A stretch of 64,000 nt of DNA from Candidatus Omnitrophota bacterium (GTDB lineage: Bacteria; Omnitrophota; Gorgyraeia; Gygaellales; Profunditerraquicolaceae): the NCBI GenBank assembly GCA_041650835.1, contig JBAZKL010000003.1, positions 227,682 to 291,681 of the forward strand, written 5' to 3'. The notes beneath the pieces were generated by a model. It had not been told where the DNA came from. It saw nothing but the letters and a program-made list of their open reading frames with translations, and ran no database searches. Made by a program: the position numbers and the translations under genes. Below, piece after piece: positions 6,241 to 57,902 of this stretch; within the stretch, counting starts at the first letter, position 1; every line of letters begins with the position of its first letter.

Positions 6241-6257
6241 ATGAATTCTCCATGTTC

Positions 6258-7949: not shown

Positions 7950-7979
7950 TGTATACCTTTCCTCTCCTCAACGAAAAAA

Positions 7980-9170: not shown

Positions 9171-9204
9171 TGTTTCCGCCTTTGCAAAAAGGTACCGAAA
9201 AAAA

Positions 9205-11759: not shown

Positions 11760-11871
11760 CGCGCCTCGATGCCCTTACCATTAACTCTTGTCCGGGAACT
11801 ATCGGCTATTGGCTCCCGGCATCTTGCGCTCAGGCTCTACCGTCCCCCCTCTACCATCCAATCGATCGAGC

Positions 11872-13239: not shown

Positions 13240-13336
13240 TCGGGATAATTGCGACTTTTATTAAAGAAATATCATCTGATAAACAAGACATACTGCCGAT
13301 AACGACAGTATACACAAACAGCGACGGTGAAGTATC

Positions 13337-14128: not shown

Positions 14129-14190
14129 ATATAACCCTTTATTGTATTAATAATACGGCAGATAATACACGGCCCACGGATGGCCATGAA

Positions 14191-15135: not shown

Positions 15136-15136
15136 T

Positions 15137-15820
15137 TCAATTCTTTTTGAGGACCAGGAAAATAGTTAACAAAGCTATATTCCCGTTTTCAAGTATATTA
15201 AATCCGTTAAAAAGCCGCGCGAGCCCTTTAAGGTTAAAGACGCTCACATGGCCGCAGTGATATTTATAGTATTCATCCTTATCTTTCCACCACTTGAATC
15301 TGCACCATAAAGGAAAAATGAACTGCCAGAGCCCCGGGAGCTTCCCGTAGGGGACAGAAACTATCAAAATCCCGTCTTTTTTAAGGACACGAAACACTTC
15401 ATTAATAATACAAGCATGGGATTCCAGGTGCTCTAATATTTCGGTCATGACCACAATGTCTATACTCGCGTCCTTCAAAGGCACCGAGTTGAACACGTCG
15501 GCATTAACCGGGAAGAAGTGTTTAACATGGTCTTTATTATAGCACAACATCGATTCGCAGATATCAATACCGATCACCGGTACTTCACCGGTGTTCCACA
15601 GGCAATTACCGCACCCAATATCAAGGACGAGACCTCCCGGGCGGTAATATTTTTTAACTAACCTTCGCGTCTTAAGTTGTCTTTGTTTAAACCATGCGCC
15701 TCTTAAACCGCCGCGGGACATTTGTTGAAGGTAATAGGTTGCCGGCTGGACAGAATACATTGATTTATGCATACGCTTTTTAGAATTCAAACAAATCGAC
15801 GGTGATACCGTCAATTTCAA
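15137..15820 (-). CDS. class I SAM-dependent methyltransferase
   Basis: 227 aa; VLDIGCGNC SAM-binding motif. Confidence 0.65.
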   Translation of the reverse strand: MKLTVSPSICLNSKKRMHKSMYSVQPATYYLQQMSRGGLRGAWFKQRQLKTRRLVKKYYRPGGLVLDIGCGNCLWNTGEVPVIGIDICESMLCYNKDHVKHFFPVNADVFNSVPLKDASIDIVVMTEILEHLESHACIINEVFRVLKKDGILIVSVPYGKLPGLWQFIFPLWCRFKWWKDKDEYYKYHCGHVSVFNLKGLARLFNGFNILENGNIALLTIFLVLKKN

Positions 15821-21303: not shown

Positions 21304-21360
21304 AATTCCAACCTTTATGAACGCTTATTTTGATTATCAAAATTTCAAAAGATAAGATAG

Positions 21361-21500
21361 TATTAAAGTCTAAAGATTAAAGTTCAAATAACCAAGGAAA
21401 ATTAAAGGCTTAAGGTTAAATTTTAAAATTACCTACCTGCCGGCAGGCAGGAACCTTAGCCCTTTAACCTTCCTTTGTTATTTATACTTTAGCCTTTAAT
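21361..21500. repeat. ~140-bp AT-rich palindromic intergenic element, copy 1 (centre CCTGCCGGCAGG)
   Basis: Arms ...AACCAAGGAAAATTAAAGGCTTAAGGTTAAATTTTAAAATTACCT / AGGAACCTTAGCCCTTTAACCTTCCTTTGTT... are mutual reverse complements; same element at 28531-28747 and 37871-38004. Confidence 0.8.
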
Positions 21501-21536
21501 CTTCATCAAGAGCCTAATAATTCCTGCGTTACTTAA

Positions 21537-22148
21537 CTAATATGCTCCTGCCAATTCCGCTTCTTCGATCTTGCGCTTGGCGATCTTACTGCGGCCGACC
21601 GCGTTTGCCATCTGGTCACCGATATAGATCTTGATCAAGCGTATGGCTACTTCGGCCTCGGGGATCTTGACTTTCTCGAAAAGATTCACCCGCTGCGTAG
21701 TAACGCGTAATTCCTGCTTTAAAATCCTGACGCCGCTTTGCACTACGGCGAGCTCCTGCTGCAAAGAAACAAGGGCCTTACATGCCTCTACCGCACTATC
21801 AACCCATAAAGGGGCCAAGAACAGGTCATAGTCAAAGGCCTCAAAATCGGCGCTGCCGAACACCGGAACATCGACTCCCGCGATATTCCTGGTATCGCTA
21901 TTCACGCGCGCAAGCTTTACCAGAGAATCGACCTTGACTCCCTGGTCGGCGAGTATCCCCGCCCAGGGCTCAATAGATCTGTGTTTAAGCTCTAACGCGG
22001 CGGCCTTTTCCGCCAGACGGCTGTTCTGACGGATGATCTCTATCTGCAATTGCTGCTTTTTAAGCTGCAGCGTCGGCAGATAGCGCGCGTACTGTTTAAG
22101 CGCGTCCCGTTGCTTTTTTAATTCTCCCTTAGTTAATTTAACCTTCAT
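21537..22148 (-). CDS. atpD: V/A-type ATPase subunit D
   Basis: 203 aa coiled-coil protein MKVKLTKGELKKQRDALKQY... typical of V-type D subunit. Confidence 0.85.
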   Translation of the reverse strand: MKVKLTKGELKKQRDALKQYARYLPTLQLKKQQLQIEIIRQNSRLAEKAAALELKHRSIEPWAGILADQGVKVDSLVKLARVNSDTRNIAGVDVPVFGSADFEAFDYDLFLAPLWVDSAVEACKALVSLQQELAVVQSGVRILKQELRVTTQRVNLFEKVKIPEAEVAIRLIKIYIGDQMANAVGRSKIAKRKIEEAELAGAY

Positions 22149-22167
22149 GAATACACCTTAGCTTATA

Positions 22168-22211
22168 GTCCACGGTCAACAGTCCATAGACCATGGACCA
22201 TCGACTATCGG
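22168..22211. repeat. short tandem NGACCAT heptamer repeats between atpD and atpB
   Basis: GTCCACGGTCAACAGTCCATAGACCATGGACCATCGAC; the same GACCAT array occurs at 30950-30983 and inside pyrK (28945-28973). Confidence 0.6.
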
Positions 22212-23504
22212 CTATTTAGGCCAATATTCCTCGATCAATGATCTTTTTATCCCGGTTTCTTCCGGAGTAAAACATTCCCGCAATATCATCCATGCCTTAT
22301 CCAGGGCTTTTTCTAAAGGGATATTCAGCTTAAGCGACATCATTTCCCGCTCAAATAAAACCCCGTATTTAAGAAGCTTTTTATCCCAGTTACTCATCTG
22401 GAATCCCATTGATTGCTTCTCGCGGGTTTCCCGGTAACTGGCAAACAACTGGATCATGGTATCCATAATTACGCGATGATCGCTTCTGGTATTGCCGTTT
22501 ACCTGCTGTTTCAGGCGGCTCAGCGACCCGAACGGCTCGATAACCCCGTTCTTCAAATAAAACTGCCCTTCAGTGATATATCCGGTATTGTCGGGCACCG
22601 GATGCGTCACGTCATCCCCGGGCATGGTGGTCGCGGCAAGAATAGTAATCGAGCCTGCGGTATCAAAATCGACCGCTTTTTCATAGCGCGCAGCCAATTG
22701 GCTGTAAAGGTCCCCGGGGTATCCTCTATTGGAAGGGACCTGCTCCATGGTGATCGCGACTTCTTTTAAGGCGTCGCAAAAATTAGTCATATCGGTTAAA
22801 AGCACCAAGACCCGCTTTTTGGCAAGCGCGAACTGCTCGGCAACCGCTAAGCTTATATCCGGCACAAGCAGGCACTCGACAGTCGGGTCTGCCGCGGTAT
22901 GCATAAAAAAGATCGAGCGCGAAAGCGCGCCCGCCGCCTGCAGCGTTTCCTTAAAAGAAAGATACTCGTCATATTTAAGGCCCATTCCCCCTAAAATAAT
23001 GACATCGATCTCCGCCTGAATGGCGATACGCGCCAGTAATTCATTATACGGCTCCCCCGCGATAGAAAAAATGGGCAGCTTCTGCGATTCCACCAGCGAA
23101 TTAAAAACATCGATCATCGGAAGTCCGGTACGGATCATTTTATCGGGGATGATCCTTTTGACCGGATTGACCGGAGGCCCGCCGATATCAATAAGGTTTT
23201 CCGAAAGATGTACGCCCTGGTCCAAAGGGAGGCCGCTTCCGTTAAAGATCCTGCCGAGCAGGTTCTCCCCGCTTGAGATACGCATGGGATGCCCCAGGAA
23301 ACGGACCTTATCTCCCGTCGAAATACCCCTACTCCCGGCAAAAACCTGCAGAGAGACTTTTTTGCCGTCAAGCCTGATGACCTGGGCGAGTGAGACTTCC
23401 CGGCGGGTAGTAACTTCAGCGATCTCCATATAGCCGATACCTTCTGCTTCCACCGTGATCACGTCGCCGGCGATCTGAATGATATTCGTATATACCTTAT
23501 GCAT
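22212..23504 (-). CDS. atpB: V/A-type ATPase subunit B
   Basis: Track ORF 22212-23546 (444 aa); the likely true start is Met15 ([13 protein letters not shown]..., nt 23504), giving an 8-nt overlap with atpA; non-catalytic nucleotide-binding subunit. Confidence 0.85.
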
Positions 23505-25251
23505 GGATTGCTTCCTTCTTGTCTTTGCGCTTACCATCGATTTCAACGGTAATTTCCTGTTCTATTTTCTTGAATTCTTCACTCTGCCACTGGGAAGAAT
23601 TCCATCCTTTAAAAAGCTGCTTTACTTTTTGGAAGAATTGCAGCGCCGCCTCTTTTCCTTCAAAGGCGAATTCAGCGCCCAAGACCTGATGGATGAAATT
23701 AAAAATGTATTTTTGCCTCTCTGCGGGCGTGGCCTCATCAACCGCGTCAAACGCATTCTGCTGCAAATACACGGAATCAAAGAACTCTCCCTTGAGATAT
23801 TCCAGATAATCAGCTAAAGACGTCCCTTCTTCGCCGATAACTTTCATCATCTGCGAAACATCATTGCTCTTGAGTAAAATATCATGCCCGCGCGCGGCCT
23901 GGTCTGCCGCGACAATGCTGGGGTATTTGCTCCAACTGATCAAGGGGTCTATAGCCGGATACTTACGGGCGTTGGAGCGCTCGCGGGAGAGGCCGTGAAA
24001 AGCCCCCACGACCTTAAGGGTTGCCTGGGTCACCGGTTCTTCAAAATTGCCCCCGGCAGGGCTCACCGTCCCTCCGATAGTAACAGACCCTGTCTGAGCA
24101 TTGTATAAACGCACCACGCCTGAGCGTTCATAAAAAGAAGCGATGCGCGATTCAAGATACGCGGGGAAGGCTTCTTCTCCGGGGATCTCCTCCAGCCTCC
24201 CGGACATCTCTCTCATTGCCTGGGCCCAACGGGACGTAGAATCAGCCAAAAGCAAAACGTTCAGCCCCATCTGGCGGTAATATTCCGCGATGGTCACCGC
24301 GGTATAAACGCTCGATTCCCGCGCGGCTACCGGCATGGAACTGGTATTACAAATTATGACTGTCCGGTCGCTTAACGGTTTACCCGTGCGAGGATCGGTG
24401 ATCTCAGGGAAGGTCTTGAGCGTCTCAACGACTTCTCCCGCCCGTTCACCGCAGGCGGCGATAATAACAATATCGACTTCCGCGTGGCGGCTGGTGAGCT
24501 GCTGCAGGACCGTCTTTCCCGCGCCAAAAGGGCCGGGAATGCAATACGTGCCGCCGCGGGCAACCGGGAACAAAGAATCGATCAAACGCATCTTCGTGAC
24601 TAAAGGTTCCGTCGGCCTTAATTTTTCCTCGTAGGCCCGGATGGGGATCTTAACCGGCCAGGACTGCTTTAAATAAGCGTCATGGATTTTACCGTCACGG
24701 TCTTTTAATTGAGCGATGCTCTGGCTGAAATTATATTTCCCCGCTTTGACGATAGAAACAACTTCCTGCGCGCCGCGCAAATAAAACGGGACCATAATAT
24801 AATGAGAAAATATCTTTTCCGGGACAACCCCCAGGGCTTCTCCGGGACGAAGGCGCTCTCCCGCTTTACAGGACGGATTAAATTGCCATTCTTTTTCTCC
24901 TGACAAGGCTTCCAAATACTCCCCGCGCTTCAAGAAAAACCCCTGCTTCCGGGCAAGTAACGGCAGCGGGTTCTGTAATCCGTCGAATATCTGACCGAGC
25001 AGCCCCGGGCCCAGCTCTACGGAAAGCAGTTCATCGCTGAATTCAGCTTCATCCCCGACGAGGAGCCCCGAAGTATCTTCATAGACCTGCATTTCCGCGC
25101 GCTCGCCCCTGACGCGGATCACTTCAGCTTTCAATCGCTCCTGCCCATGAAGGATAAAAGCGACTTCGTTCTGAATAATAAACTCATTTGTTTCGACGGT
25201 AACCATATTACCGTTTATCTTTACTATTTTACCTTTTCTTTTCATTGTCAA
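23497..25251 (-). CDS. atpA: V/A-type ATPase catalytic subunit A
   Basis: 584 aa; P-loop GPFGAGKT; conserved catalytic-subunit architecture. Confidence 0.9.
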
Positions 25252-32867: not shown

Positions 32868-34109
32868 TTAAAACAAACTTAACTGCTGATCATGGCTTTC
32901 CTGATTCGAATCTTGCTCGCCGAAAATCGAGATAATGCCATACTCTCCGTCATAACCTGCCTTGATATTTACTTTTCCTTCACGCACCCGTAACACCCCT
33001 TCGGCAATGCGTTTAGGCAGGCCTCTTTGCAGGTCTTCCCCGGAAGCTCTCAACAATATATCGAATTCCGTCCCGAATTTTGCCACCAGGCTCATATATT
33101 CACGCTCGACAGAAACAGCGCCTTTAGCTACCCCTTTTGCCTCCGCGATGATCTCATCGAACGGGATCATGCGCTTAAAGGGAACGCTTGTTTCCGGCAC
33201 AATCCCTTCCGGCCGGTCCGCGAGCTGCGCGACGCGATTCATTACCCCGACCGTCACCGGCTTGCCGCATTTCGGGCACTTGCCGTTATTCTTTTTAGTC
33301 TCTTGCGGCGACAAACGGCTTTCGCACAGGCGATGCCCGTCATAATGATACTTGCCTTCTTCCGGGAAAAATTCTATCGTGTATAAAAACCTTTTATTAT
33401 CTTTAGTCCTCAAGACATCGCGGATCGTTCTATAATCCAGTTCGCAGTTAAAAACATTTGCCTCACGGCCTATTCTTTGAGGAGAATGTGAATCGCTGTT
33501 GGATACCAGGCTGAAGCGGTCTAAAGCGCTCAACCTCCAATTCATCGCCGGGTCACTCGACAATCCCGTCTCCAGCGCGAATATTTTCGGCGTCTGGGCC
33601 TCAAAACAATCCTCTATCCGGTCGAATCCCGACATAGAGCCGAATACTGAAAACCAGGGAGTCCAGATATGCCCGGGAATAACCATGCAATTTTCATCGA
33701 TATCAAAAACAATGCGCGCCAATTCAGCCGCATCCAATCCCAGGATCGGACGGCCGTCGGATGCCAGGTTCCCGCAGCGGGAAAGCACCTCATTGATCTT
33801 ATCGGTTGTTTTAAACGAAGGGCTCAGCACTATATTATGGACCCGATAAGTCCGGCCGTTCTTGGAATAGATACTGCTTATCTCCGATGATAAAATAAAA
33901 TAGATACCGTTATATTTAAAAAGCCCGTTTCCCAGGTCTTCAAGCTTATTCTTGAGCTCCTCCAGCCACAAGTGATAGGTAAAATCACCTGTCCCCATCA
34001 ACGTAATACCCTTAAGCTTGGCCCATTGCGCGATATGCTCAACATCCATATTGCGGCTGGTGGCCCGGCTGTATTTAGAGTGAATATGAAAATCAGCGAT
34101 AAACTCCAT
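32868..34109 (-). CDS. endonuclease Q-like PHP-domain nuclease with C-terminal zinc ribbon
   Basis: 413 aa; ADFHIHSKYSRATS, GTGD, GHIWTPW, SNSDSHSP, CPKCG motifs match archaeal/bacterial EndoQ signature blocks (recalled from memory, not aligned). Confidence 0.75.
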   Translation of the reverse strand: MEFIADFHIHSKYSRATSRNMDVEHIAQWAKLKGITLMGTGDFTYHLWLEELKNKLEDLGNGLFKYNGIYFILSSEISSIYSKNGRTYRVHNIVLSPSFKTTDKINEVLSRCGNLASDGRPILGLDAAELARIVFDIDENCMVIPGHIWTPWFSVFGSMSGFDRIEDCFEAQTPKIFALETGLSSDPAMNWRLSALDRFSLVSNSDSHSPQRIGREANVFNCELDYRTIRDVLRTKDNKRFLYTIEFFPEEGKYHYDGHRLCESRLSPQETKKNNGKCPKCGKPVTVGVMNRVAQLADRPEGIVPETSVPFKRMIPFDEIIAEAKGVAKGAVSVEREYMSLVAKFGTEFDILLRASGEDLQRGLPKRIAEGVLRVREGKVNIKAGYDGEYGIISIFGEQDSNQESHDQQLSLF

Positions 34110-36907: not shown

Positions 36908-37490
<583 letters not shown>

Positions 37491-37870
37491 ATCCCTCGCG
37501 CACACGCTTGCACGCTTCGGGATATTTCGGCCATACAACTTACGTTCGCTTACGCTCCGTGCTGCTCCGCTTCCCTCGCGTTAACGCTTGAAAATTTCTG
37601 CGAAATTTTCTGCGCACGCTTCGGGATTAATTCGCAGACGGCCTTCGGCCTACACTTTACGTTCGCTTACGCTCCGTAAAGTGTCTGCTCATTAAAAAAA
37701 AACCCAACGGCTTATTATGCGGTTGGGATATGATTTTTTAAGGTCGTGAAGCATTTTTCTCTACCTTGCCGGCTTCTCATGAGCCAGCTTAAAGGCCTCT
37801 TTGTATTTAAATAAATATACCACCTCCGGGGGCGTTTGTCAAGGTAAATGACAAGGATGAGGATGACGGA

Positions 37871-38004
37871 AAAGTTTAAAGGATAAAGCTTAAAGAACAA
37901 AGGAAAATCAAAGATTAAAGGTTAAATTTTAAAATTACCTGCCGGCAGATAGGAAGTTTAAGAATTAAACCTTAGACCTTTAACCTTCCCTTGTTATTTA
38001 AACT
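37871..38004. repeat. AT-rich palindromic intergenic element, copy 3 (centre CCTGCCGGCAG)
   Basis: ...AAGATTAAAGGTTAAATTTTAAAATTACCTGCCGGCAGATAGGAAGTTTAAGAATTAAACCTTAGACCTTTAACCTTCCCTTGTT... Confidence 0.8.
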
Positions 38005-38116
38005 TTAGCCTTTATCATTACCCCTGTTGCTAAATAATAAAAAGAAGGGGTGCTCAAGAGACGTCCTATGGGGGCTGATAAACCAAAGGGCGGGAACACC
38101 CCTCCTGAACTGCTTA

Positions 38117-41100
38117 TTATTCTATTATCAACGGCTCCTTAGCCGTAAAAGCGATCCTCGCAAGAGCAACCTGCAGGTCGCCCGCCGGCTTATCCGATTC
38201 CAACAAAGCCAGGAATTCCCTGAAAGCCGCTTCTGTAGGCTTAAGCTGATCCTCTTCTAACCGCAAGATATCCGCGATACAGGAAAGTACTTTATCTACC
38301 TGCGGATTAATATCGCCTTTAACGCAGCAAGCCTGCAAATATTCCTTGATCCTGTCGCTGGCAGGAATGATCCCCGCCTGGATCATGCCCTGTATCTGCT
38401 GCCATTCTTCATCGAGATCAATATTTTCCAGGCGGTTCAAAGGCGGCATAACGCTCATTCCGGGAGTATTCATCGGCTGCGTGACAATAGGGAGTGAGCG
38501 CATATCAATACCTCCCTTTTTAATCGGGCTTGAAGATCGCGGCTGTGCCGCACTTTCAGAAGCCGCTACGGCAGTATCGAGTTGCGCCGCTATCGGGCCG
38601 AAAGACCCGTCATTTGCATTGACGATAATAGATGGCGGCTCATTATCCGGCTTTACGTTTATTCTTCCGATGAGCATATACGGTGCTGACAACTTTAAAT
38701 TAGAGAAATCCCCCCATTGATTACTTAAAAATTCAAAAACATTCGGGAATATTTGATCATTTTCTAACGCCCCGCTGTCCCGTAATTGGGATGTCAATTG
38801 ATTGCAAGCTTTTGCTGTCATTGAACCAACCATGGAATAAAAAATATTCCATTTAGCGGCTACTTGAACTTTATCCTCGGCCTCATCCACTTCACGCGGA
38901 TTATCAACATATATGCCTATATCAATATCGCTGAATTCCGAATCATTGCTCCCTTTAATAGCTTTATCTTTAAGCCTGCCTCCGGTCATATAGATCCTTA
39001 TTTCTCCGGGGCGTTGAACACCTATGCTTATAAGATACTTCTGCGCTTCTTGCGCGATCAACTGCCCGGCCCTCAATAAATGATCGCCGCTAAAAACTGT
39101 AACAAAGCTGCGGGAGGAGTTCCTGACTACCGGATCGGAGGAATCCATCTGCTTCCGGGTGAACTCGAGCATATCCTGTATCCTGGTCTTCACCGCCGCC
39201 TCTTCCTCGGGAGTTACCCCTTCAAGAAATTCAGCATCTCCCGTATTTGCCATCGGGCTGCTGCTATGAACGCTATCGGTACGGAACATGGTAAACATAG
39301 TCCGCTTCGAGGCGTCGACATCCCAATCATCGACAATAAGCTGTATGACTTTAAGCCCGGGGACAAAGAATTTCCGGCTATCCACTGTATTAGCGATCAG
39401 GGCGATCCCGACATGCGACAAATGCCCCTCTATGCCGGACAAAAGGCGCTTATAATCGGTGTCGCCTATTTCATGAGCTCCGTCAAACTTGACCTGAGCA
39501 TCATAGACCGTATTAGGAGAATTAAAATAGACGAAATCATATTCACCGGAGAGCATGTCGAATTCCCTGCCGCGCTCGACTTTATGCACGAAAACTTCCG
39601 AATTCCTGCTCCCGGGAAAAAGCAGGTCAAGGTTAAACACCGTATTATCCACCGCTTCTTGAAGTATATCGATAGTGTCCAGATGGATCTTTAAATTATT
39701 GGATCTTGCCCAGGCATACGCCGTTAATACATCGACCCCGGTCCCTGAACCGATAACTAACACCCGGATATCGTCTCTGCCCGCAGCCCGTAAGTGCCGG
39801 GCGACAGCAGCCATCGCCCGGGGGCTTTGGATGAACCTGGAAGAATGTAAAGAAAGCCCGTAATCATTGACCGGAGAATATACCGCTTTATCGCGCGCGA
39901 TCACGCCTTTACCGGTCAGGGTCATTAAAAGGCGGTAGGCCTCAAGGTCATTTACTCCTCCGACGACCTGATAGCCGTTTTCATCTATTATTTTTTCCAA
40001 AGCAAGGATCTCCTGCTTTACCTGCCCCACCGGCCGGCGAAGGATCCTGCTCACATAGCCTGAGGCGATCGGCGAGCCGGCGGAACGGGTAGAAAAACGC
40101 TTTGCCCTCCTGAGCCATTCGGAAGGCTTCTTTTGATCATTCCCGTCGAGAACTTCCACAATTGCGGAATCTTTTGAATGCACCAGCAGGATATCACCCT
40201 GGCTGCCAAGCGCCTGCAGAAAGAGGTCCCCTTGCGCTGCTTTTTGCAATTGCTCTACGCCCAAATGTATCCCCGGAACACCATTTTCCGAGATAAGGAG
40301 CGATCTTTTTCCTTGCGGATCCCAAGCTTTGAGCTTATCCACTGCCCAGGCAAAATCATCCATGGAATTGGTGTCGACGACATACCCCAGATTGCCCTGG
40401 GGAGCGGCTACCACAAAACCATAAGTAGCGACGGGGTGGCTTTTATGATTACGAAACACGATGGTGATGCCCAATCCTTTATCAACAAACTCTATCTCAT
40501 CAAAAGCGTTTTTCTCGAAAGCGTCTTCAACCGGCTCATTCGCCAATAAATCCCGCGCCCCTTGCCGGGACAAACTTTGAGCCTCCTCAAGAGGAACGCT
40601 CTCCCAGGCCTCTGCGCCAAGCAGGTAAGCCGCGATGACCTCGCTTAATTCATCTCTTACTTCCCTGGTCATAATCAAGTCGAACGCATTGATCTCTTTA
40701 TTGGCATTTCGCACGATAAAACCGATATCATTACCTCTCCCGTTCTTTATCGCTTCCTTTTTTGCTTCAGCATATTTCTCAATGATGAACTGCACAAAGC
40801 CGGCATTATGGTCGGCGTGATTATGCGTCAGTATCCAGCGCGCGGGAAGTAAATTCCTTTTTTTGAGATTCGCGTACGCTTCAAGAGAAGGATCAACAAA
40901 AATACTTTCTTTCCCGACATTAATAAGGAAATTGGTCACGTCTTCTTCCGACAAGGCGTCATGAACGCCCATGAACGTGACCGAAACTTTATCCGCGGGC
41001 CGCAGCTGATACTCCTGGAGCTGCTCCCGGGTAAAATCGCCTGTTTTATGGATATGTTCATCGGTTGAAGTATCGCGCTTACGGGAGGCGACAGCGCGGG

Positions 41101-44100
41101 CTTCCGCTATATCCCCGAGCCGCTCTACAAACTTATAATTTTCACCGTCCTTAACGACCTCAACCGCCACATCTATGCCGTCTTTACCTAAGACCGTGAA
41201 TTCACTCCTGTTTTCTAAATTAATAATATTATACGGATTGTCTTTCTCCAGCGCCACCGCGCTCATGAGCGAAGAAACAAAACCGTTACTTTTCTTAATA
41301 GCGACATCCAGGATCATCTGTACCGCTAAAGCTTCCCGCGCGTTATTGACGATAATATAGGTCGGCCTGACAGCCAAATCGCTCACCAGCCGGAACCCTT
41401 GAGCCCTTAACGACGCTTCTTCTTGTGGCATAGGCGCGATCTTCATAGCCTCATAAAACAGGTTACCAAAAACAACAAACTGCAGGTCAGCGCCGTCATA
41501 GCCCTCTCCAAATTGAGGAATAATGATCTGGGGGGTTTCTTGTATTTTGTTGGTAAAAGAGGTTAGGCCGTTTGCGACCAGAAGTTTTGAAACCGTAAGG
41601 CTCTGGCGCGACTCCCCCTCCGCCTTATTTTGCAGCGGCGAAGCGGAAGTTCCCGCTGATAGAGCAGAGCCGGCGGCAAAGGATGGCTGTTGCAATAAAG
41701 CTTCTTGATAATCTTTCAAACTTTGGATATCATCCTTAAGCATTTCTCTATCAGATGTATCTAACGAATCGCCAAACTCGCGGGATATCCTTGCCAACGC
41801 TTTCTCAAGCTTATCAATGACACGTTTAACCTGTTCGGCTTTTAAAAGTTCTCCTTGATACATTGCTTTTGGCGGCCAGCTGTTTTGGTCATATACAAAC
41901 AAAGGCTCAAGATATTCATTTTTTAATTCGCGTAACCTGCTGATCGCGACAATTGCTTTTTCTTTCTGCACAACATCTCGTTCAACGCTTTGTACCGTTT
42001 CAAGCCTCGGGGCGCTTCCGTAAATCGAAGACTTATCTCCCATGCTCAATAAACCAGGATTAAACGCCCATTCGTTATTCAATCCGGACGGATTATCCTT
42101 ACCAAATTCGCTAAAAGAAACAAACCCATCAAATGAAACGCTTAAACTGCCTCTTCCTGCGGGTAAAATCACTAACCCAACCTCGGATGAACTTTCAATT
42201 TCAGGCTCAAACTGGTCCGCAGCTGCGTCAATAATAAACCACTGAGCCCCCACTCTGAATAATCCATACGCATGATAACCCGGCTCTCCCTTATTTTTTC
42301 CCGTATTAAGCAAAACCGCGTTTTCTTTACCAAGGGCTTCCTGCAGCCACTGAATAACATCCCCGTTCCTGATCCAGCAGTCATAGCGCACCGCGCTGCC
42401 GACATCCCCATCTCTCGAATAAGCCTCTAATTTATCTTTTGTTTCTAATTTTTCTTTTACTGCCTTAAGCGCAGCCAATATCTTATCCAACGATAATTGA
42501 TCAATCCCTTTTAAAAGATCTCCCCAGCGCGCCATAAAATTATCCGGGGTAACCTTAACTCCCCGCAAAAAGTTCCCAAATGTTTGCCAATCAAGGGACG
42601 CCTCAGCAGCCTCAAAAGAAGCATTAACCGGCGAACCGGCAGAAACCTGGTTATCAACAGGGGAAGAAGCATTCTTTACGGCAAGATTGGAATAAACCGT
42701 ATCAAACAAACCGCCGGCATTAACAACGCTATCGACATATCCCGCGGGCGCCTTATCTGCCGGCTCGAACATGGCATCAATTGCCGAAGCAAGTTCGCGT
42801 ATGCTTTTTTTCAGTATTTCTCTTTCCTGAGATTGTATGGCATAAAAACCCTCCAATGCCTCAGCGATCGCCGCAGGGTCATCTTCGGCTTTCCCTGAGT
42901 CTTCAAGATAACCCTGGACATATTCTTCTTTTGTATGAGAGGCGTCGTAATCAAAAAATGAATACCCGATATCTTTTTCGGACAGCATTGTATCTCCCGC
43001 GTTATAGGTCTGCAGGAAATGATGGTCCGTAGTTACCGAATCACACACTTTATGGATTATTGCCAGCCCCGCGGCATACCGCGAAACAAAATCATCCAGG
43101 ATTATTTGGGCGGCGGTTTTTGAAGCACCTAGTGGCTGCCGCTGCTTTTCCAATACGGAGCATTTTTCCATAAAAAAGTCCTTAAAGCGCCAAAGCTCGG
43201 CGATCCGCCAGGGAGCGGCAGAGGCATAAACAAACAACCTCATGCGCCAGATATACGCATTCCAATCTCCCGAATAATCACCCGTACGAAAGGAGAGCTC
43301 CGGGAAATCCGAAAGCGGGACCAAAAACACGCCTGACGGCCCCTGCCCTTGGGTTACTTCCCAATACCCGCCCTTCTGCTGCGCCTGCCGTAAACGCAGA
43401 TCGCTGCTTAAATCTTCGTCGTTATTGCCGCTCTTATCTATCGAATCAATGATTATCTGCAGGGGGGAAATATTTAACGCGGGGGAGAAAAATATATCAT
43501 CGGCAACGACTTGCGCTTGGCCTTGTTCCCGAGCCGTCAGCCGCACTTTTTCTAAACCTTCCTGAAAGAGCCGGGCCTTCTCTGCCTGACGGATAACCTC
43601 CTCATTCATCACGCTTCCCTCGATCACATTATCGGCGTTTCTCTCGCGTAGCTCAAAGCGCACGCGCCCTTGCGTATTAGCGCCGCCGCCTTTAACGCTC
43701 ACGAATGGTTCACCGTCGCCTTCTTCATAGGGCGTGCTTTCTACGCGCTGCTGGAGGCCTCCCATCTTACTATATACCTGCAATGAAAAACAGAGCCCAT
43801 CGGCATACCCAAGGCCGGGAGGTATTTGATGGAGCCGTTTAAGCGCTTCAAAAAGCTTAGCGTTGCCTTGAATAATAACACTGCCGTCAGGCCCCTTAAA
43901 ATCAGAGATAGGAATGACCACGCCTTTTCGCACGGCGTCCCTGATCGCGGCGGTATTGTAATAATTCTCAACTTTCCCCAGGGTATAGATATTCTCGGGG
44001 ATCACCTCATGCCCGGCAATGATCAATTCTCTATAGGCCTGAGCGGAAACAACAGGGTCTTCGTTAGCGATCCGCGCGATAATTTCATTAAGTTTATCGA

Positions 44101-46507
44101 CCGTTTTACTGCCCAAAGGAGAAGACGCCTTTTCGGGTACCGACAGCGGTGAAGAACCCTTCTTTATTTTTGCCCCCGGCTTTGCCAAAGGCTTAACCGC
44201 GGCCTTTACCGGTTTTTTAACGGGCGCCTTGACGGAAGCCTTAACTGCTTTCGCGGCCGCGGGGCGCTTTGCCGCAACGGGAGCAACTTTCGCGGGAGAT
44301 TGTTTTGCCGGCGGCTTAACGGCATTATTTGCCGCCGCGGGGGGTTTCTGCTGAACAGAGGCCCCCCGCGCGTTCTTTAAACTCGCTTCAACTACGGTGC
44401 CGATAACAACATAATCACTGGTTTCCTTCGGGATCTTCTTGTTCCAGATGGTCCCAAAACCAGCGTTATAAACAGCCAAGCTCAGCTGTAAACGGGAAAG
44501 ATGCGGGAATTTTTTAATGAGGACATTAACATACCTTTGCACCCTGAAGCAGTAAATGGCCGCGCCTAATTCATAATGTGCTTTCGCGGGAAGTTTATCC
44601 ATCATCGCCCCGAAGGGATCTTGCTGTTGAGGGTTATTTTTCAGTTTTTTATATATATCGGCGTATTTTTGTAACGGCTTTAAAAGCTTATACGCTGACT
44701 TTTCCTCACTCGTCATTTTATTTTCTTTTTTCTCTTTATCATTCTTTTCTTTTTGTTCCAATTCATCTACGAACCTCATTAAGTCCCTGAAAGCTATTTC
44801 CCTGATCTGCATCAACCCCTTTGCCCCCTTGCCTGAGGTAGCGGTGAGGGACTGCGTTGAGTTTTCAATACCGGCAATGATCTCCAGATGCACAGGCTGT
44901 ACCTCTTGGTTGATCGCATTGCCTGACTTGCCTTTTTCTACCATATTCCTGAAAACTGCCCGGGCTTCATTCGGCAGCTTGCGGTTATTTACCATGCCGA
45001 TAACCGTTTGGGCCCTCTGCCGGGTGGCTATGTCCATTACGCTAAAGCTATTCGCGGGCAAAGCGGCAGCGCCTGACTGCGGCACGGGCCTTCTCAGTAT
45101 TTGATTATTTTTACCTGCCTGTTCGGCGATCGGCGCGGGAGAAAAAAGCACAGCGAGAAATAACCCGATCGCGGTAAGCTTTTTAAACTGATCGCCTATG
45201 TTTTCTAAAAATGTTTTTTGGCGTTTGTCAGGCGAACGGGAAATCGCGGAAGAACTCGCATTTGCTCCCTGAGGCGACGTATCGGGCTGTTCTATAAATA
45301 CAGGAACATCGCTTTTTAATTCAATTCGGGCCGATGGATCTTCCAATGTCCCGCCTTCCGCGAAAAATGATATGCCTTTATCATTGAAGCGGGCCAGAGG
45401 AGAACTGCCGGCGCGCGAATGCCCGACGATCGAAGACACCACAGGTGACGACGCTCCCGGGGCAGGCACCTGAAAATCGGTCAAATTCATCCCTCCGGAA
45501 AAGTAACTTCTGATCGATCGCCCCATAGGCGTAGCAACGGGGATCTTAAGATTATATTCTCCGTCTTTAAACGACCGCCGGTATTCATTAAAATAGGTGC
45601 TCTTTGACCAGGGGACCCGAGAAGACAACCCGTTTAAATTCTTTTTGTCGATCATCCAGGAATAAAGGCCGCCCTTGCCGTAAAAACGCGCTTTAAACCA
45701 TTGCGCCATGATCAATGAATAATATACCTGCCGCAAAGGCGCGTATCGTTTGGCTGTATTAACCTCTTTAGTGATTTTAGGAAGGATCTTTTCTCTGATA
45801 AGCGCTGAAGCGTATTCGTTTAAGGATTTAAGCCGTTCATCCTCAAAATTGTAAACGCTGGAGCCTTTGAGGTAATCCTGCTCCAGCATTACCTTAAGCG
45901 TTGCTTTATAGATATAGGCGTTATCGTCGGCCTCGCGGATAATGATCTCATGAGGGACGATCCACGGCCTGGTTAAGGTGGGAATGTTTATATTGTCCGC
46001 GCCTAAAAGTTCTTCCGCCTTTTTATATAATTTATCCCAGTATTCTTTTCCTTCGGGTGTTTCAGGCGAAGTATACTGCGCGGTATCCTTTTTAAGCTGC
46101 AGGTCCGCTTCCAGCAGTACCTTGCCGAGGTCGGTCCTCGCCAAAAAGGGGTCGATTATATTATCTTCGGCGTCCGGGCGTAAATTGACCCAGAATGAAT
46201 CATTAGGCAGGCTGATACCGATAAAGAAATAATTCAAAAGTGTTTTAGTCGTGTCTTCAAGGGAAGGCTTGTTTAAATTCCCGGCGTCGCCTTTATCCAG
46301 CAAAAGGTTAAAATTGTTATTCAGATTATCATACGAGAGGTAGCGTAAATGTAAGGGCCGGAATTTATCCTGAATAATTGAATTACGCAGCTGCGCGAAA
46401 TGGCCGGAAATATCCAACTGTCCGGAAACTTGCGCTAAACCGGTCTGCTCAAAGAAGAAACAAAAACAAAGCAAAAGCGAAATAAATTTAAATAATTTAT
46501 TTTTCAC
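38117..46507 (-). CDS. giant secreted multidomain protein (2796 aa): signal peptide; SLT lytic-transglycosylase domain; Ala/Pro/Lys-rich linker; Cys/His/Asp module; MBL-fold domain; NPPY-like SAM methyltransferase domain; Pol-beta-type nucleotidyltransferase domain
   Basis: Single uninterrupted frame. GLMQI (aa~564) and AVYNAG (aa~678) SLT motifs; PAKVAPVAAKRPAAAKAVKASVKAPVKKPVK linker (aa~715-800); YDCW...YHAYG...IIDAAAD (aa~1377-1427); THNHADH (aa~1895); VLVIGSGTGVDV + DFVYFNSPN (aa~2250-2332); TGGRL-x14-SDIDIGIYVD (aa~2508-2534). Confidence 0.8.
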   Translation of the reverse strand: MKNKLFKFISLLLCFCFFFEQTGLAQVSGQLDISGHFAQLRNSIIQDKFRPLHLRYLSYDNLNNNFNLLLDKGDAGNLNKPSLEDTTKTLLNYFFIGISLPNDSFWVNLRPDAEDNIIDPFLARTDLGKVLLEADLQLKKDTAQYTSPETPEGKEYWDKLYKKAEELLGADNINIPTLTRPWIVPHEIIIREADDNAYIYKATLKVMLEQDYLKGSSVYNFEDERLKSLNEYASALIREKILPKITKEVNTAKRYAPLRQVYYSLIMAQWFKARFYGKGGLYSWMIDKKNLNGLSSRVPWSKSTYFNEYRRSFKDGEYNLKIPVATPMGRSIRSYFSGGMNLTDFQVPAPGASSPVVSSIVGHSRAGSSPLARFNDKGISFFAEGGTLEDPSARIELKSDVPVFIEQPDTSPQGANASSSAISRSPDKRQKTFLENIGDQFKKLTAIGLFLAVLFSPAPIAEQAGKNNQILRRPVPQSGAAALPANSFSVMDIATRQRAQTVIGMVNNRKLPNEARAVFRNMVEKGKSGNAINQEVQPVHLEIIAGIENSTQSLTATSGKGAKGLMQIREIAFRDLMRFVDELEQKEKNDKEKKENKMTSEEKSAYKLLKPLQKYADIYKKLKNNPQQQDPFGAMMDKLPAKAHYELGAAIYCFRVQRYVNVLIKKFPHLSRLQLSLAVYNAGFGTIWNKKIPKETSDYVVIGTVVEASLKNARGASVQQKPPAAANNAVKPPAKQSPAKVAPVAAKRPAAAKAVKASVKAPVKKPVKAAVKPLAKPGAKIKKGSSPLSVPEKASSPLGSKTVDKLNEIIARIANEDPVVSAQAYRELIIAGHEVIPENIYTLGKVENYYNTAAIRDAVRKGVVIPISDFKGPDGSVIIQGNAKLFEALKRLHQIPPGLGYADGLCFSLQVYSKMGGLQQRVESTPYEEGDGEPFVSVKGGGANTQGRVRFELRERNADNVIEGSVMNEEVIRQAEKARLFQEGLEKVRLTAREQGQAQVVADDIFFSPALNISPLQIIIDSIDKSGNNDEDLSSDLRLRQAQQKGGYWEVTQGQGPSGVFLVPLSDFPELSFRTGDYSGDWNAYIWRMRLFVYASAAPWRIAELWRFKDFFMEKCSVLEKQRQPLGASKTAAQIILDDFVSRYAAGLAIIHKVCDSVTTDHHFLQTYNAGDTMLSEKDIGYSFFDYDASHTKEEYVQGYLEDSGKAEDDPAAIAEALEGFYAIQSQEREILKKSIRELASAIDAMFEPADKAPAGYVDSVVNAGGLFDTVYSNLAVKNASSPVDNQVSAGSPVNASFEAAEASLDWQTFGNFLRGVKVTPDNFMARWGDLLKGIDQLSLDKILAALKAVKEKLETKDKLEAYSRDGDVGSAVRYDCWIRNGDVIQWLQEALGKENAVLLNTGKNKGEPGYHAYGLFRVGAQWFIIDAAADQFEPEIESSSEVGLVILPAGRGSLSVSFDGFVSFSEFGKDNPSGLNNEWAFNPGLLSMGDKSSIYGSAPRLETVQSVERDVVQKEKAIVAISRLRELKNEYLEPLFVYDQNSWPPKAMYQGELLKAEQVKRVIDKLEKALARISREFGDSLDTSDREMLKDDIQSLKDYQEALLQQPSFAAGSALSAGTSASPLQNKAEGESRQSLTVSKLLVANGLTSFTNKIQETPQIIIPQFGEGYDGADLQFVVFGNLFYEAMKIAPMPQEEASLRAQGFRLVSDLAVRPTYIIVNNAREALAVQMILDVAIKKSNGFVSSLMSAVALEKDNPYNIINLENRSEFTVLGKDGIDVAVEVVKDGENYKFVERLGDIAEARAVASRKRDTSTDEHIHKTGDFTREQLQEYQLRPADKVSVTFMGVHDALSEEDVTNFLINVGKESIFVDPSLEAYANLKKRNLLPARWILTHNHADHNAGFVQFIIEKYAEAKKEAIKNGRGNDIGFIVRNANKEINAFDLIMTREVRDELSEVIAAYLLGAEAWESVPLEEAQSLSRQGARDLLANEPVEDAFEKNAFDEIEFVDKGLGITIVFRNHKSHPVATYGFVVAAPQGNLGYVVDTNSMDDFAWAVDKLKAWDPQGKRSLLISENGVPGIHLGVEQLQKAAQGDLFLQALGSQGDILLVHSKDSAIVEVLDGNDQKKPSEWLRRAKRFSTRSAGSPIASGYVSRILRRPVGQVKQEILALEKIIDENGYQVVGGVNDLEAYRLLMTLTGKGVIARDKAVYSPVNDYGLSLHSSRFIQSPRAMAAVARHLRAAGRDDIRVLVIGSGTGVDVLTAYAWARSNNLKIHLDTIDILQEAVDNTVFNLDLLFPGSRNSEVFVHKVERGREFDMLSGEYDFVYFNSPNTVYDAQVKFDGAHEIGDTDYKRLLSGIEGHLSHVGIALIANTVDSRKFFVPGLKVIQLIVDDWDVDASKRTMFTMFRTDSVHSSSPMANTGDAEFLEGVTPEEEAAVKTRIQDMLEFTRKQMDSSDPVVRNSSRSFVTVFSGDHLLRAGQLIAQEAQKYLISIGVQRPGEIRIYMTGGRLKDKAIKGSNDSEFSDIDIGIYVDNPREVDEAEDKVQVAAKWNIFYSMVGSMTAKACNQLTSQLRDSGALENDQIFPNVFEFLSNQWGDFSNLKLSAPYMLIGRINVKPDNEPPSIIVNANDGSFGPIAAQLDTAVAASESAAQPRSSSPIKKGGIDMRSLPIVTQPMNTPGMSVMPPLNRLENIDLDEEWQQIQGMIQAGIIPASDRIKEYLQACCVKGDINPQVDKVLSCIADILRLEEDQLKPTEAAFREFLALLESDKPAGDLQVALARIAFTAKEPLIIE

Positions 46508-46743
46508 TTTATTGGGCTCGCCTTCCCTGACTGACTGCCGTGCAGGCAGCGTGGCATAGTAAAAGCTTATAAAATTTTTATACCTCGATGTTTATTGTTG
46601 GTTTATCAGCCTTAAGAAAAGTATGCAATAATAAGGAAGGGAATTACCAGTTTTTTCGACGAGAAATTGAAAGCGCTTTCAGGAATTTTACAAGAAAAAC
46701 GCAGAATCGTGAGGTCACAGGTCGCAAGTAGTCAATAATTCCA

Positions 46744-46914
46744 AGATATGGTGTGAACGGGTCCTGACTTGGCTGCTTTCCTCGCAGGGACGCTCGTTTT
46801 GCCCCTGCGAGGCAAAACTTCGCTCAGGTCGGCTGCGTCGCTCTGCCCGACTTCGTTGTAGAGGGGCATCCATGCCCGCTCCTTGCCTTTATGCCCTGCT
46901 CGGGAATCAGCCAA
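46744..46914 (-). ncRNA. candidate structured RNA / IR-flanked element between rsmI and the giant gene; contains SRP-RNA domain-IV-like motif
   Basis: 20-bp terminal inverted repeats (GTGAACGGGT-GACTTGGCTG). Internal perfect hairpins CCTCGCAGGG/CCCTGCGAGG and TTTTGCC/GGCAAAA. Minus-strand CCCUGCGAGGAAAGCAGCCAAGUCAGG resembles the bacterial 4.5S consensus UCCGGAAGGAAGCAGCCAAGGCAG. Confidence 0.3.
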
Positions 46915-47100
46915 GTCACCCGTTCACTAATAAAAACACTGAGGGCACTGGAGACTGGGACACCCGGTAAACAGGGAATCCGGGTAAAAAAGCGACTTGA
47001 GCAAACAATCCAACAGGGGCATTTTGGGTAAGTTCAAGATAAACAAATAGTAAAGGGAGATCCGAGGATCAGTGAATCGGGAATACTGTGACTGGGACGA

Positions 47101-56567: not shown

Positions 56568-57902
56568 TTAGTGTTGAAGAACCTTGATGATCCTGTTAAC
56601 CTTGTCTAATAAGTATTCGTTCTTCTTGATCTCTGTTTTGATCTTTGAATGTGAATGTAAAACGGTCGTATGGTCCTTGCCCCCAAAAAAAGTCCCTATC
56701 TCCGGCAGGGATAATTCCGTTAACTCCCTGCTTAGGTACATCGCGACCTGCCGGGGCAAAACAATATTTTTATTGCGCTTTTTGGTTTTTAAGTCCTGCA
56801 GCGACATTCCGAATTCTTCTACCACGCAGCGCTGTATAAAATCAATGGTTATGGTTTTCTTGGTTTCTTTCAAAAGGTCTTTTAATACCTCTTTGACTAA
56901 ATCGAGCGTGATCGCCTTTTCTTCTAAAAGCGAATACGCGATCACCCTGATCAACGCGCCCTCCAATTCCCTGATGTTGGTTTTGATCAGCTGCGCTATA
57001 AAAAAGATGACTTCATCGGGGACGGTTATGGGTTCGCGTTCTATTTTCTTTTTCAGGATGGCCACGCGCGTTTCCAGGTCCGGCGGCTGAATATCCGTGG
57101 TAAGCCCCCAGCTGAACCTCGATACGAGCCGGTCCTGCAAATTGGAGATCTCCTTGGGCGGCCGGTCGGAAGATATAATGATCTGCTTATGCGCGTCGTA
57201 TAAGGTGTTAAAGGTGTGGAAGAATTCTTCCTGGGTCGATTCTTTCCCCGCGATGAAATGGATATCGTCGATCACCAGCACGTCGGCATGGCGGTAGCGC
57301 TGCCGGAACGCCGAGGTCGCGTGGTGCTGGATAGCGTCGATGAGCTCGTTGGTAAAGCGTTCGGAGGCGATATAGCAGATCTTCATATGGGGATTTTTAC
57401 TTTTGATCTGGTGGCATATCGCCTGTATTAAATGTGTTTTTCCCAATCCCACTCCCCCGTAAATAAAAAGCGGGTTATACGCTTTCGCCGGGGATTCGGC
57501 GACTGCCATTGAATAGGCGTGCGCGTGGCGGTTGGAATGCCCTACGACAAAATTTTCAAAGGTATAACGGGGATTCAGAAAAAGGCTGTCGGGAAGCTCT
57601 TGAATGGACGTTTTTATTTTTTCAAGCGTCGGCTTTACCGCGGACTCTTTTAATTTTAGATTTGTTTCGATACTAAAAGTAATATCTTCTTTGGTGGTTT
57701 GCTGGATCGCCTCCTGGATAATAAATTTATAATGTTTCTCTATCCAGTCCCGGAAAAAATTATCCGGCGCTTCCAGGATGAGCGTATGAGTGTCGCTCTC
57801 TCTCGGTTTTAAGGGGTTGAGCCATGTCTCAAAAACAGTTTCTCCCAGCTTGTTTTTTAAATATTCCGATACTGCCTTCCAGTCTTTATGGATATCGAAC
57901 AT
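56568..57902 (-). CDS. dnaA: chromosomal replication initiator DnaA
   Basis: 444 aa; Walker A GGVGLGKTHL, AAA+ and C-terminal DNA-binding HTH domain. Confidence 0.95.
   Translation of the reverse strand: MFDIHKDWKAVSEYLKNKLGETVFETWLNPLKPRESDTHTLILEAPDNFFRDWIEKHYKFIIQEAIQQTTKEDITFSIETNLKLKESAVKPTLEKIKTSIQELPDSLFLNPRYTFENFVVGHSNRHAHAYSMAVAESPAKAYNPLFIYGGVGLGKTHLIQAICHQIKSKNPHMKICYIASERFTNELIDAIQHHATSAFRQRYRHADVLVIDDIHFIAGKESTQEEFFHTFNTLYDAHKQIIISSDRPPKEISNLQDRLVSRFSWGLTTDIQPPDLETRVAILKKKIEREPITVPDEVIFFIAQLIKTNIRELEGALIRVIAYSLLEEKAITLDLVKEVLKDLLKETKKTITIDFIQRCVVEEFGMSLQDLKTKKRNKNIVLPRQVAMYLSRELTELSLPEIGTFFGGKDHTTVLHSHSKIKTEIKKNEYLLDKVNRIIKVLQH

Follow-up and report, generated by a model that had tools for sequence, protein, structure and literature searches.

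The Omnitrophota are uncultivated bacteria of wide distribution, most of them ultra-small and dependent on hosts, and the huge multi-enzyme open reading frames (ORFs) of their genomes are a known puzzle. Published accounts describe the phylum as host-dependent or predatory, and in most of its multi-enzyme giant proteins signal peptides or transmembrane (TM) helices are predicted (PMC10066038; bioRxiv 10.1101/2023.11.21.568195; 10.64898/2026.06.07.730766). The same accounts propose that the giants, including the 'Archaeovorins' and the 'multi-enzyme metabolic cluster' proteins, interact with or prey on other cells, and suggest that they are cleaved into smaller polypeptides (West-Roberts et al. 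2023, bioRxiv 10.1101/2023.11.21.568195; Nielsen & Lui 2026, 10.64898/2026.06.07.730766; Seymour et al. 2023, PMC10066038). We describe here an ORF encoding 2796 amino acids (aa) in a stretch of 64,000 nucleotides from a Candidatus Omnitrophota bacterium (assembly GCA_041650835.1, contig JBAZKL010000003.1, positions 227,682 to 291,681), hereafter the window. Its product, the query, belongs to an Omnitrophota-specific 'capped cassette' family that is very large and apparently undescribed, in which a conserved N-terminal cap (N-cap) and a conserved C-terminal cap (C-cap) enclose a varying series of cargo modules that meet at a short Ser-Ser-Pro (SSP) motif.

The query family has its phylum in common with the described giants, as well as long ORFs stringing together many unrelated enzyme domains; these domains include methyltransferases, GNATs, HATPase_c, HAD, sugar-metabolism enzymes and HEAT repeats. 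Size and setting differ. Giants are catalogued from 10 kAA (thousand amino acids) upwards or as ORFs above 20 kb, whereas the query measures 2.8 kAA and the family members encountered here extend from 0.6 to 7.4 kAA. Giant genes are reported to adjoin loci resembling type II secretion systems or type IV pili (T2SS/T4P-like) together with pilZ, whilst the query gene lies between glmS/TP_methylase and pyrR. Archaeovorins, as described by West-Roberts et al. (2023), reach tens of thousands of residues, with HEAT repeats, glycosyltransferases and many TM segments. The query falls short of that size and gave no HEAT, glycosyltransferase or clear TM match in Pfam and NCBIfam scans and hydropathy analysis; neither the T2SS/T4P-like locus reported upstream of Archaeovorin genes nor the pilZ/sugar-transport genes reported downstream adjoin the query gene. 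The searched literature on Omnitrophota giants, incomplete in its coverage, held no mention of the cap pair, the SSP motif or the housekeeping loci.

In logic, though not in sequence, the family resembles MARTX and polymorphic toxins. MARTX proteins of Vibrio and its relatives have conserved ends bracketing strain-specific effector modules, which are exchanged by recombination, and linkers that are processing sites. The query family likewise has conserved ends with variable, exchangeable modules between them. There is, however, no sequence or fold similarity, and Pfam and NCBIfam scans of the query found neither RTX/glycine-rich repeats nor a recognisable CPD-type protease; MARTX toxins moreover take the type I secretion route and lack a signal peptide at the N-terminus, whereas the query has a signal-like leader and any processing would be hypothetical. 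Polymorphic toxins and two-partner secretion (TPS) proteins, such as CdiA and Rhs, combine a secretion domain conserved at the N-terminus with a motif, VENN for example, that marks the border of the variable part. Common to them and the query family are a conserved N-terminal domain after the signal, a border motif and several paralogues per genome. They differ in bearing one toxin tip with an immunity gene, whilst the query family has a conserved C-terminus and an internal variable part; the cargo consists of many ordinary enzyme folds, and for the N-cap an alpha/beta fold with long helices is predicted rather than a TPS beta-helix. Cargo proteins of the type IX secretion system (T9SS), such as the gingipain polyproteins, have a Sec signal, a processed multidomain body and a conserved Ig-like beta-sandwich C-terminal domain of ~80 aa. 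The combination of a Sec-type signal with a conserved C-terminal domain on diverse multidomain proteins recurs here, but the C-cap measures ~130 aa and is predicted to be all-helical, which excludes a C-terminal domain of the T9SS type; the Bacteroidota-specific machinery was not searched for.

The family emerged from homologue searches. With the whole protein 532 proteins were found, and the 119 listed matches have only aa 1-~400 and ~2620-2796 in common with the query. When the N-terminal 387 residues were scored against 1.84 billion representatives of clusters at 50% identity, 7446 clusters matched at E<=1e-3, of which 5573 stayed within E<=1e-30. An earlier interpretation made before any database search, the sequence-only reading, had regarded the protein as a singular fusion of four enzymes; with homologues in thousands of clusters it is not. 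Nearly all of the 150 listed N-cap matches start in their first few residues and end at about residue 343-346, a few having an N-terminal extension of 60-110 residues. N-cap-bearing proteins range from 440 to 7391 aa. Both caps (aa 1-~346 and ~2663-2796) are 45-75% identical to thousands of Omnitrophota proteins of 0.6-7.4 kAA, with aa 1-346 reaching 60-90% identity to hundreds of members and the C-cap 32-83% identity to those compared. Every homologue with a named source is a protein from an Omnitrophota metagenome-assembled genome (MAG) or from a mislabelled bin, which bears out the suspected affiliation of the stretch. Although they define the protein, the caps and the junction motif had been passed over in the sequence-only reading.

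The N-cap gave no Pfam, NCBIfam or PDB counterpart, which places it, with more than 7000 clusters at 50% identity, among the larger domains for which none has been found. AlphaFold2 (AF2) prediction from 25 sequences (pLDDT 77, pTM 0.71) returned an alpha/beta fold with three beta-hairpins packed on six long helices. The C-cap begins ~132 residues from the end with the near-invariant KGGIDFRxLPIVTQP, read in the query as KGGIDMRSLPIVTQP (aa 2663-2677), and GGID occurs 201 times against 8 expected. It was found in 183 of the 216 collected proteins, and the members without it look like fragments at contig edges. Its predicted structure is all-helical, a bundle of five to six helices (pLDDT ~90), with an ARM/HEAT-like repeat, weak sequence similarity to armadillo repeats (E 4e-4) and conserved Cys residues. 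The leader and the ~320-residue N-cap recur in every member, the ~130-residue C-cap in every complete one. Between the caps lie from none or one to more than ten modules of unrelated enzymes, parted by linkers that are predicted to be disordered and carry the SSP motif. The smallest complete members, of 609-827 aa, consist of the N-cap, at most one module and the C-cap: P0198 (609 aa) has a short linker between its caps, P0207 (827 aa) a single methyltransferase module. The homologue search appears to reach only the N-terminal parts of proteins, so that negatives for internal modules of long proteins do not mean that homologues are lacking. Thus the M4-M6 segment (module names as in the table below) retrieved nothing, in a search which with internal or C-terminal segments missed even the query's own entry, and the C-cap retrieved only short contig-edge fragments in which the matching part adjoins the N-terminus.

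A feature of the N-cap in other members is a short in-frame insert in its loops, reading GLSPxG...GTVP or PAGRQG, which occurs in 33 of 216. These inserts look like translated palindromic repeat elements inside coding sequence; none was found in any frame of the window.

The modules are gained, lost and exchanged at SSP motifs. In the query the motif [AS]SSP[VIL], with its GSP and ASP variants, occurs in ten copies at seven places, each of which parts two dissimilar regions. Seven SSP tripeptides stand against 0.73 expected (about 10-fold), and over 120 members 436 stand against 65, the preferred context being A or S at -1 and V, I, L or A at +1. The other 41 ORFs of the window (15,635 residues) contain no SSP, which rules out proteome-wide composition as the cause. 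A DNA-level repeat is likewise ruled out, because the ten sites differ in their codons; since serine is encoded by both TCN and AGY, selection must act on the peptide. Ends of homology blocks fall within 10 aa of a motif in 27.8% of cases compared with 5.0% at random, a 5.6-fold enrichment (n=669, the points being phylogenetically non-independent). In P0059 and P0094 all Pfam domains lie between motifs, and the module borders of the query coincide with homology blocks in common with P0002 and P0003. In the AF2 models, the segments around the junctions have pLDDT values lower than 50.

The closest relatives show such exchange directly. Among the listed matches only P0002 (4471 aa) and P0003 (3728 aa) have internal blocks in common with the query, and these block by block: M4-M6 are kept, M2 is replaced and further modules are inserted. 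Where the query reads RSAGSPIASGY, at its AGSPI junction, both relatives carry an extra module (P0002 aa 3281-3565) between '...RSAGSPLA' and 'AAGSPIISGY...', with the phosphoribosyltransferase-like motif VILCENDINTGATL. A second extra module (P0002 aa 4068-4320), without an assigned type, stands at the SSSPI junction ahead of the C-cap, and both are flanked by GSP/SSP motifs. The motifs are often paired 10-15 residues apart, as at three of the query junctions, and family-wide spacing has a matching short tail; it is as if each cassette brought its own flanking motif.

Coordinates of the ORF, its caps, junction motifs and cargo modules in the window (amino-acid positions refer to the query)
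Feature	Coordinates	Strand	Basis or remark
Complete ORF, 2796 aa + stop	38117..46507	-	100% identical protein P0001 in public collection
Signal-peptide-like N-terminus, aa 1-25	46433..46507	-	layout of n-, h- and c-regions
N-cap, aa ~26-346, family-defining, ends RSYFSGG	45470..46432	-	homologue searches
Pair ASSPV (aa 353) + GSSPL (aa 368), N-cap/M1	45395..45451	-	motif scan
M1, aa 372-784, hydrophobic stretch 444-462, SLT-like lytic transglycosylase core ~525-705, Ala/Pro/Lys linker 712-784	44156..45394	-	Pfam SLT, motifs
Pair GSSPL (aa 785) + ASSPL (aa 795), M1/M2	44114..44155	-	motif scan
M2, aa 800-1280, without recognisable family	42668..44110	-	Pfam and PDB scans
Pair ASSPV (aa 1281) + AGSPV (aa 1291), M2/M3	42626..42667	-	motif scan
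M3, aa 1295-1621, Cys(YDCW)...His(YHAYG)...Asp(IDAA)	41645..42625	-	motif only
SASPL (aa 1622), M3/M4	41633..41644	-	motif scan
M4, aa 1626-2143, putative MBL-fold hydrolase in C-terminal half; N-terminal half without assignment	40079..41632	-	Pfam, PDB profile, Foldseek
AGSPI (aa 2144), M4/M5	40067..40078	-	motif scan; insertion site in P0002/P0003
M5, aa 2148-2415, probable class-I SAM methyltransferase	39263..40066	-	motifs, weak profiles
SSSPM (aa 2416), M5/M6	39251..39262	-	motif scan
M6, aa 2420-2658, possible minimal Pol-beta-type nucleotidyltransferase, YMTGGRL-x15-SDIDIGIYVD	38534..39250	-	motif, weak profile
SSSPI (aa 2659), M6/C-cap	38522..38533	-	motif scan; insertion site in P0002/P0003
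C-cap, aa 2663-2796, family-defining, opens with KGGIDMRSLPIVTQP	38120..38521	-	consensus KGGIDFRxLPIVTQP

The fold assignments of the cargo in the query vary in strength. A whole-protein Pfam scan gave sub-threshold matches only (SLT, 18.8 bits; Lactamase_B_2, 14.9 bits) and NCBIfam nothing significant. The protein was therefore also cut at the junction motifs and each piece scanned alone, a segment-wise check that the sequence-only reading had itself proposed; for each of the modules it named, the top family proved to be the expected one. M1 alone reaches 22.5 bits for SLT (PF01464; E 8.9e-5), above the gathering cut-off of 21.3. The defining motifs of SLT domains are a catalytic Glu upstream of S-x-x-GA-x-GLMQ, plus AYNAG. 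All of these (the Glu, GLMQ and YNAG) are found in M1, as IE548NS...SGKGAKGLMQ564...AVYNAG680, with a charged insert of ~100 aa between GLMQ and YNAG. The motifs of the proposed transglycosylase are thus in place whilst its profile match is borderline, and the orthologous module in P0002 has no SLT match in Pfam. The Ala/Pro/Lys linker that had been noticed forms the end of the module.

For M4 the support is weak but concordant, and four lines point to a metallo-beta-lactamase (MBL) fold. The module alone scores 20.7 bits for Lactamase_B_2 (E 3.4e-4; cut-off 27), and two homologues match the same MBL Pfam family. The superfamily is marked by an Asp, HxHxDH, a His, an Asp and a His. In M4, THNHADH, the His of SHP, the Asp of VVDT and the His of LVHS do not vary among 4 homologues that are 33-71% identical. 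A profile of 4 sequences against the PDB puts glyoxalase II (GloB) on top (E 0.027), and Foldseek ranks 1-17, obtained from a poor model (pLDDT ~50-80), are nearly all MBL folds at E ~0.05, none individually significant. The hydrolase proposed earlier has its motif in place, whilst its profile stays below the cut-off.

M5 is probably a class-I S-adenosylmethionine (SAM) methyltransferase. Scanned alone it gives PCMT at E 0.025 and Methyltransf_23 at E 0.13, both sub-threshold; a 47%-identical homologue gives as the best of several class-I families Methyltransf_23 at E 2.6e-4, also sub-threshold, and hhalign against bona fide methyltransferases returns 50% probability. Amino-methyltransferases typically show motif I, (E/D)xGxGxG, an acidic residue ending beta2, and a motif IV resembling (D/N)PP(Y/F). 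In 4 homologues of M5, VLVIGSGTGVD (motif I), IDTIDI (motif II) and F-N-[SA]-P (motif IV) are invariant, motif IV of the query being N-S-P-N, within DFVYFNSPN, a deviant form of NPPY. Hence the motifs of the methyltransferase claim were recovered, with sub-threshold profiles beside them. A PDB match of M5 to Tako8 was taken as spurious, no stretch of it passing. M6 is possibly a nucleotidyltransferase of the Pol-beta type, the weakest of the four domain calls. The Pol-beta signature is hG[GS]-x9-16-[DE]h[DE]h. M6 has the hG[GS]...DxD motif in TGGRL...SDIDIGIYVD, with weak profile matches to NTP_transf_2 (E 0.025) and Polbeta (E 0.15); no fold match was obtained for it, and its P0002 homologue has no nucleotidyltransferase match in Pfam.

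M2 and M3 are two further modules besides the four domains named before, and neither has a Pfam or PDB match. For M2 one 25%-identical module was found, in the family member P0006. M3 has orthologous modules in P0002 and locus L001 at 85-92% identity. The Cys-His-Asp spacing noticed in the sequence-only reading is present in it as YDCW...YHAYG...IDAA (aa ~1375-1430), and at the level of this motif M3 may resemble the core of a transglutaminase or a papain-like cysteine protease. Apart from the weak GloB match of M4, sequence and profile searches of the modules against the PDB gave nothing useful. The AF2 model of aa 1626-2796 has a mean pLDDT of 50.6 and is poor over the methyltransferase and nucleotidyltransferase.

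Elsewhere in the family the cargo is far more varied. Scans of three members confirm transketolase, enolase, transaldolase, aminotransferase, hexokinase, PPDK and CofD, and in the same three also GNAT, methyltransferase and metallophosphoesterase domains. The precomputed Pfam accessions of other members span many different enzyme families. We take these to include metallophosphoesterase, MidA-type and other methyltransferases, GNAT, HATPase_c, ABC1, peptidases M48 and M23, PBP transglycosylase, GGDEF, HD, NUDIX, kinase, radical SAM, glycosyltransferases and HEAT repeats; kinase cargo is indicated by the precomputed accession alone. P0023 and P0010 carry PF01551 (Peptidase_M23) and PF00912 (the PBP transglycosylase domain).

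The leader is strongly conserved. The query begins with VKNKLFKFISLLLCFCFFFEQTGLAQ, a basic n-region followed by a hydrophobic core of 12-13 residues and by G-x-A ahead of Q26. The tripartite layout expected of a signal peptide is thus visible, as had been supposed, and with G-x-A at -3/-1 it predicts cleavage before Q26. The family consensus is MxKKxxKIxSLLLCFxLxFEQSGFA/QVAGQLDISG, the slash marking that point; its first ~30 residues are strikingly conserved, with Q21 and Q26 invariant. Export of the protein through Sec would follow from this cleavable-signal-like leader, from the scarcity of later hydrophobic spans and from cargo that in part acts on peptidoglycan. A possible membrane anchor had been suggested at aa 444-462. 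This segment is the most hydrophobic 19-mer of the query, with a borderline Kyte-Doolittle mean of 1.72, but it occurs in the closest relatives only and is no feature of the family. A TM-like segment after the N-cap is absent from 155 of 203 members, which rules out a conserved second TM helix; 16-37 of the 203 have one near the N-cap.

The chromosomal position of the gene is conserved as well. Family loci were collected by a pattern-limited scan of species-representative genomes, so that copy numbers are lower bounds. At least 50 loci were found, all in Omnitrophota MAGs or obviously mislabelled bins, with at least 2-4 per genome (MHGF01 4, JAUSCZ01 4, CAYQXW01 3). The order gyrB-gyrA-glmS-TP_methylase-[member] is kept at at least ten loci, and pyrR-pyrB-pyrC is visible downstream in two of ten gyrBA-glmS loci. 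At least two further groups of loci have conserved neighbours of their own, so that paralogues occupy at least three distinct conserved positions; no gene accompanies all loci examined, and no universal partner gene was found. At the gyrBA-glmS slot the member measures ~1500 aa in L012, 2367 aa in L018 (P0041), 2796 aa in the query and 4471 aa in L002 (P0002). The locus is conserved, whilst the cargo at it turns over quickly. The suggestion that the gene is core rather than a recent insertion therefore holds for the slot but not for what fills it, and the four domains do not form a fixed unit: orthologues that occupy one and the same locus already differ in their cargo.

Within the Omnitrophota repertoire of such ORFs, at least the range of 0.6-7 kAA can thus be described as one family, with a fixed two-cap chassis, a junction motif and freely exchangeable cargo. 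For the field this provides a searchable signature (N-cap, C-cap and SSP), natural domain borders and a testable hypothesis of export followed by processing at SSP.

The explanation that we favour, with modest confidence, is that the protein is a Sec-exported carrier whose constant caps convey a swappable enzyme payload for a partner cell, with SSP junctions as recognition sites. The protein would be exported through Sec; the caps would form the constant vehicle, by which the protein is targeted to, anchored on or docked to the cell surface or a host or prey cell; and the modules would be an exchangeable payload acting on the envelope and metabolism of the partner. SSP would be no passive spacer but a site that is recognised, most likely by a protease that releases the modules, or else for glycosylation. 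The motif might instead mark linkers for O-glycosylation after export, or be no more than a favoured linker sequence. A payload role fits the description of Omnitrophota as host-dependent or predatory and equipped with giant surface proteins, and the effector-like exported function proposed in the sequence-only reading seems a reasonable one. The cargo of the family includes envelope-active enzyme types: the SLT-like module in the query, and the PF01551 and PF00912 accessions in P0023 and P0010.

Several observations weigh against this explanation. Much of the family's cargo is of classic cytoplasmic types that depend on cofactors, such as transketolase, enolase, transaldolase, hexokinase, PPDK and SAM methyltransferases; outside a cell these would lack substrates, which favours either delivery into another cell or one of two rivals, a polyprotein or a scaffold. 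P0078, P0007 and P0018 have few or no SSP motifs, from which it follows that the motif is not obligatory. Neither in the window nor at the family loci does a secretion system, a protease or another partner gene recur consistently beside the members, and the borderline hydrophobic segment at aa 444-462 could alter topology in the sub-lineage of the query.

A bolder and less probable form of the carrier explanation is offered tentatively. The caps may constitute an unrecognised phylum-wide delivery platform that accepts arbitrary cassettes, a dedicated protease cutting SSP at or inside the host or prey. If true, the platform would have converged in function with MARTX and polymorphic toxins, to which neither its sequence nor its fold is related, and would carry a far more diverse payload.

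The rival that survives best, although we consider it rather improbable, is that the protein is a polyprotein for the cell's own use. SSP would be cut by a protease acting in trans or by a module in cis (M3), the released enzymes would serve the periplasm or cytoplasm of the producer, and the caps would matter for folding, stability or regulation only. The peptide-level selection of a junction motif lying in disordered linkers, the central-metabolism enzymes among the cargo and the conserved locus among housekeeping genes all suit this proposal, and the authors of the giant-gene study likewise raised cleavage into smaller polypeptides. Yet the protease-like module is confined to the sub-lineage of the query, orthologues replace their cargo very fast for proteins with housekeeping roles, and for mere co-expression a signal-like leader and strongly conserved caps would be needless.

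Less likely again is a membrane-tethered cytoplasmic scaffold, held by an uncleaved N-terminal anchor and, in the sub-lineage of the query, by a second span at aa 444-462. The N-cap would then be periplasmic, and the enzyme string with the C-cap would form a cytoplasmic multi-enzyme assembly at the membrane. Such a scaffold would accommodate a cargo dominated by cofactor-dependent cytoplasmic enzyme types and the position of the most hydrophobic 19-mer at aa 444, and many Omnitrophota giants are, in the published descriptions, predicted to be TM proteins with a cytoplasmic bulk. The second hydrophobic segment is, however, missing after the N-cap in most members, as counted above, and without it a single N-terminal anchor leaves the bulk of the protein outside. 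The N-terminal hydrophobic core has the length of a signal peptide, and the SLT module would find itself on the side of the membrane away from peptidoglycan.

The reading with which the protein was first approached, a unique secreted fusion toxin of exactly four activities, now appears very unlikely: although the four motif sets lie where that reading placed them and no characterised protein was matched, the combination is not kept even in the nearest relatives, and the conserved part is the caps, which occur in thousands of proteins with other cargo. That separate genes were joined by mis-assembly or missed stops is scarcely credible, no supporting evidence having been found, since an identical protein (P0001) sits on a public record of 434,960 bases, independent MAGs from many studies show the same cap-cargo-cap layout in one frame, and GC content and skew run unbroken across the ORF.

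The surroundings of the gene, which is one stop-free frame, as had been reported, and starts with GTG, confirm the housekeeping setting near the origin that had been described. In the order of transcription dnaA (56568-57902, -), dnaN, gyrB, gyrA, tRNA-Glu, glmS and the TP_methylase-family gene precede it, and pyrR, pyrB, pyrC and a Mut7-C RNase gene follow; yidC, parA and parB lie on the plus strand from 58825. The switch of gene strand at ~57.9-58.8 kb coincides with the minimum of cumulative GC skew, and the origin is accordingly placed in the dnaA/yidC gap, ~11 kb from the start of the ORF. The non-coding flanks of the ORF are unusually long, 669 bp (37448-38116) and 593 bp (46508-47100). 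No terminator-type hairpin was found 3' of the ORF, nor did the minus strand ahead of it show a consensus promoter; the 669-bp downstream flank contains, at 37842-37814 (-), a near-consensus sigma-70-like site (TTGACA-17-TATATT, 11/12, extended TG) suitably placed to serve pyrR. Adjoining Mut7-C and pyrC is an ORF of 413 aa (32868-34109, -) without a Pfam match, which is kept at the same place in L012 and L018 with 81-92% identity over the parts present.

Further along the window, a long co-directional run of modification-enzyme genes extends over 934-17363 (-). It encodes a Methyltransf_24 protein, two sulfatases, two ATP-grasp proteins, one carbamoyltransferase, three radical-SAM proteins, of which two have a B12-binding domain, a pair of class-I methyltransferases and one glycosyltransferase of the PMT_2 type, and looks like a cluster modifying glycans, the envelope or natural products. 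The PMT_2-type gene (15780-17363, -) may have a link to glycosylation of Ser/Pro linkers. At 19534-25251 (-) lie V/A-type ATPase genes, comprising A and B subunits and an I-subunit-like ORF with a weak match; the 'symbiotic' ATPases of Omnitrophota treated in published work are of the F-type.

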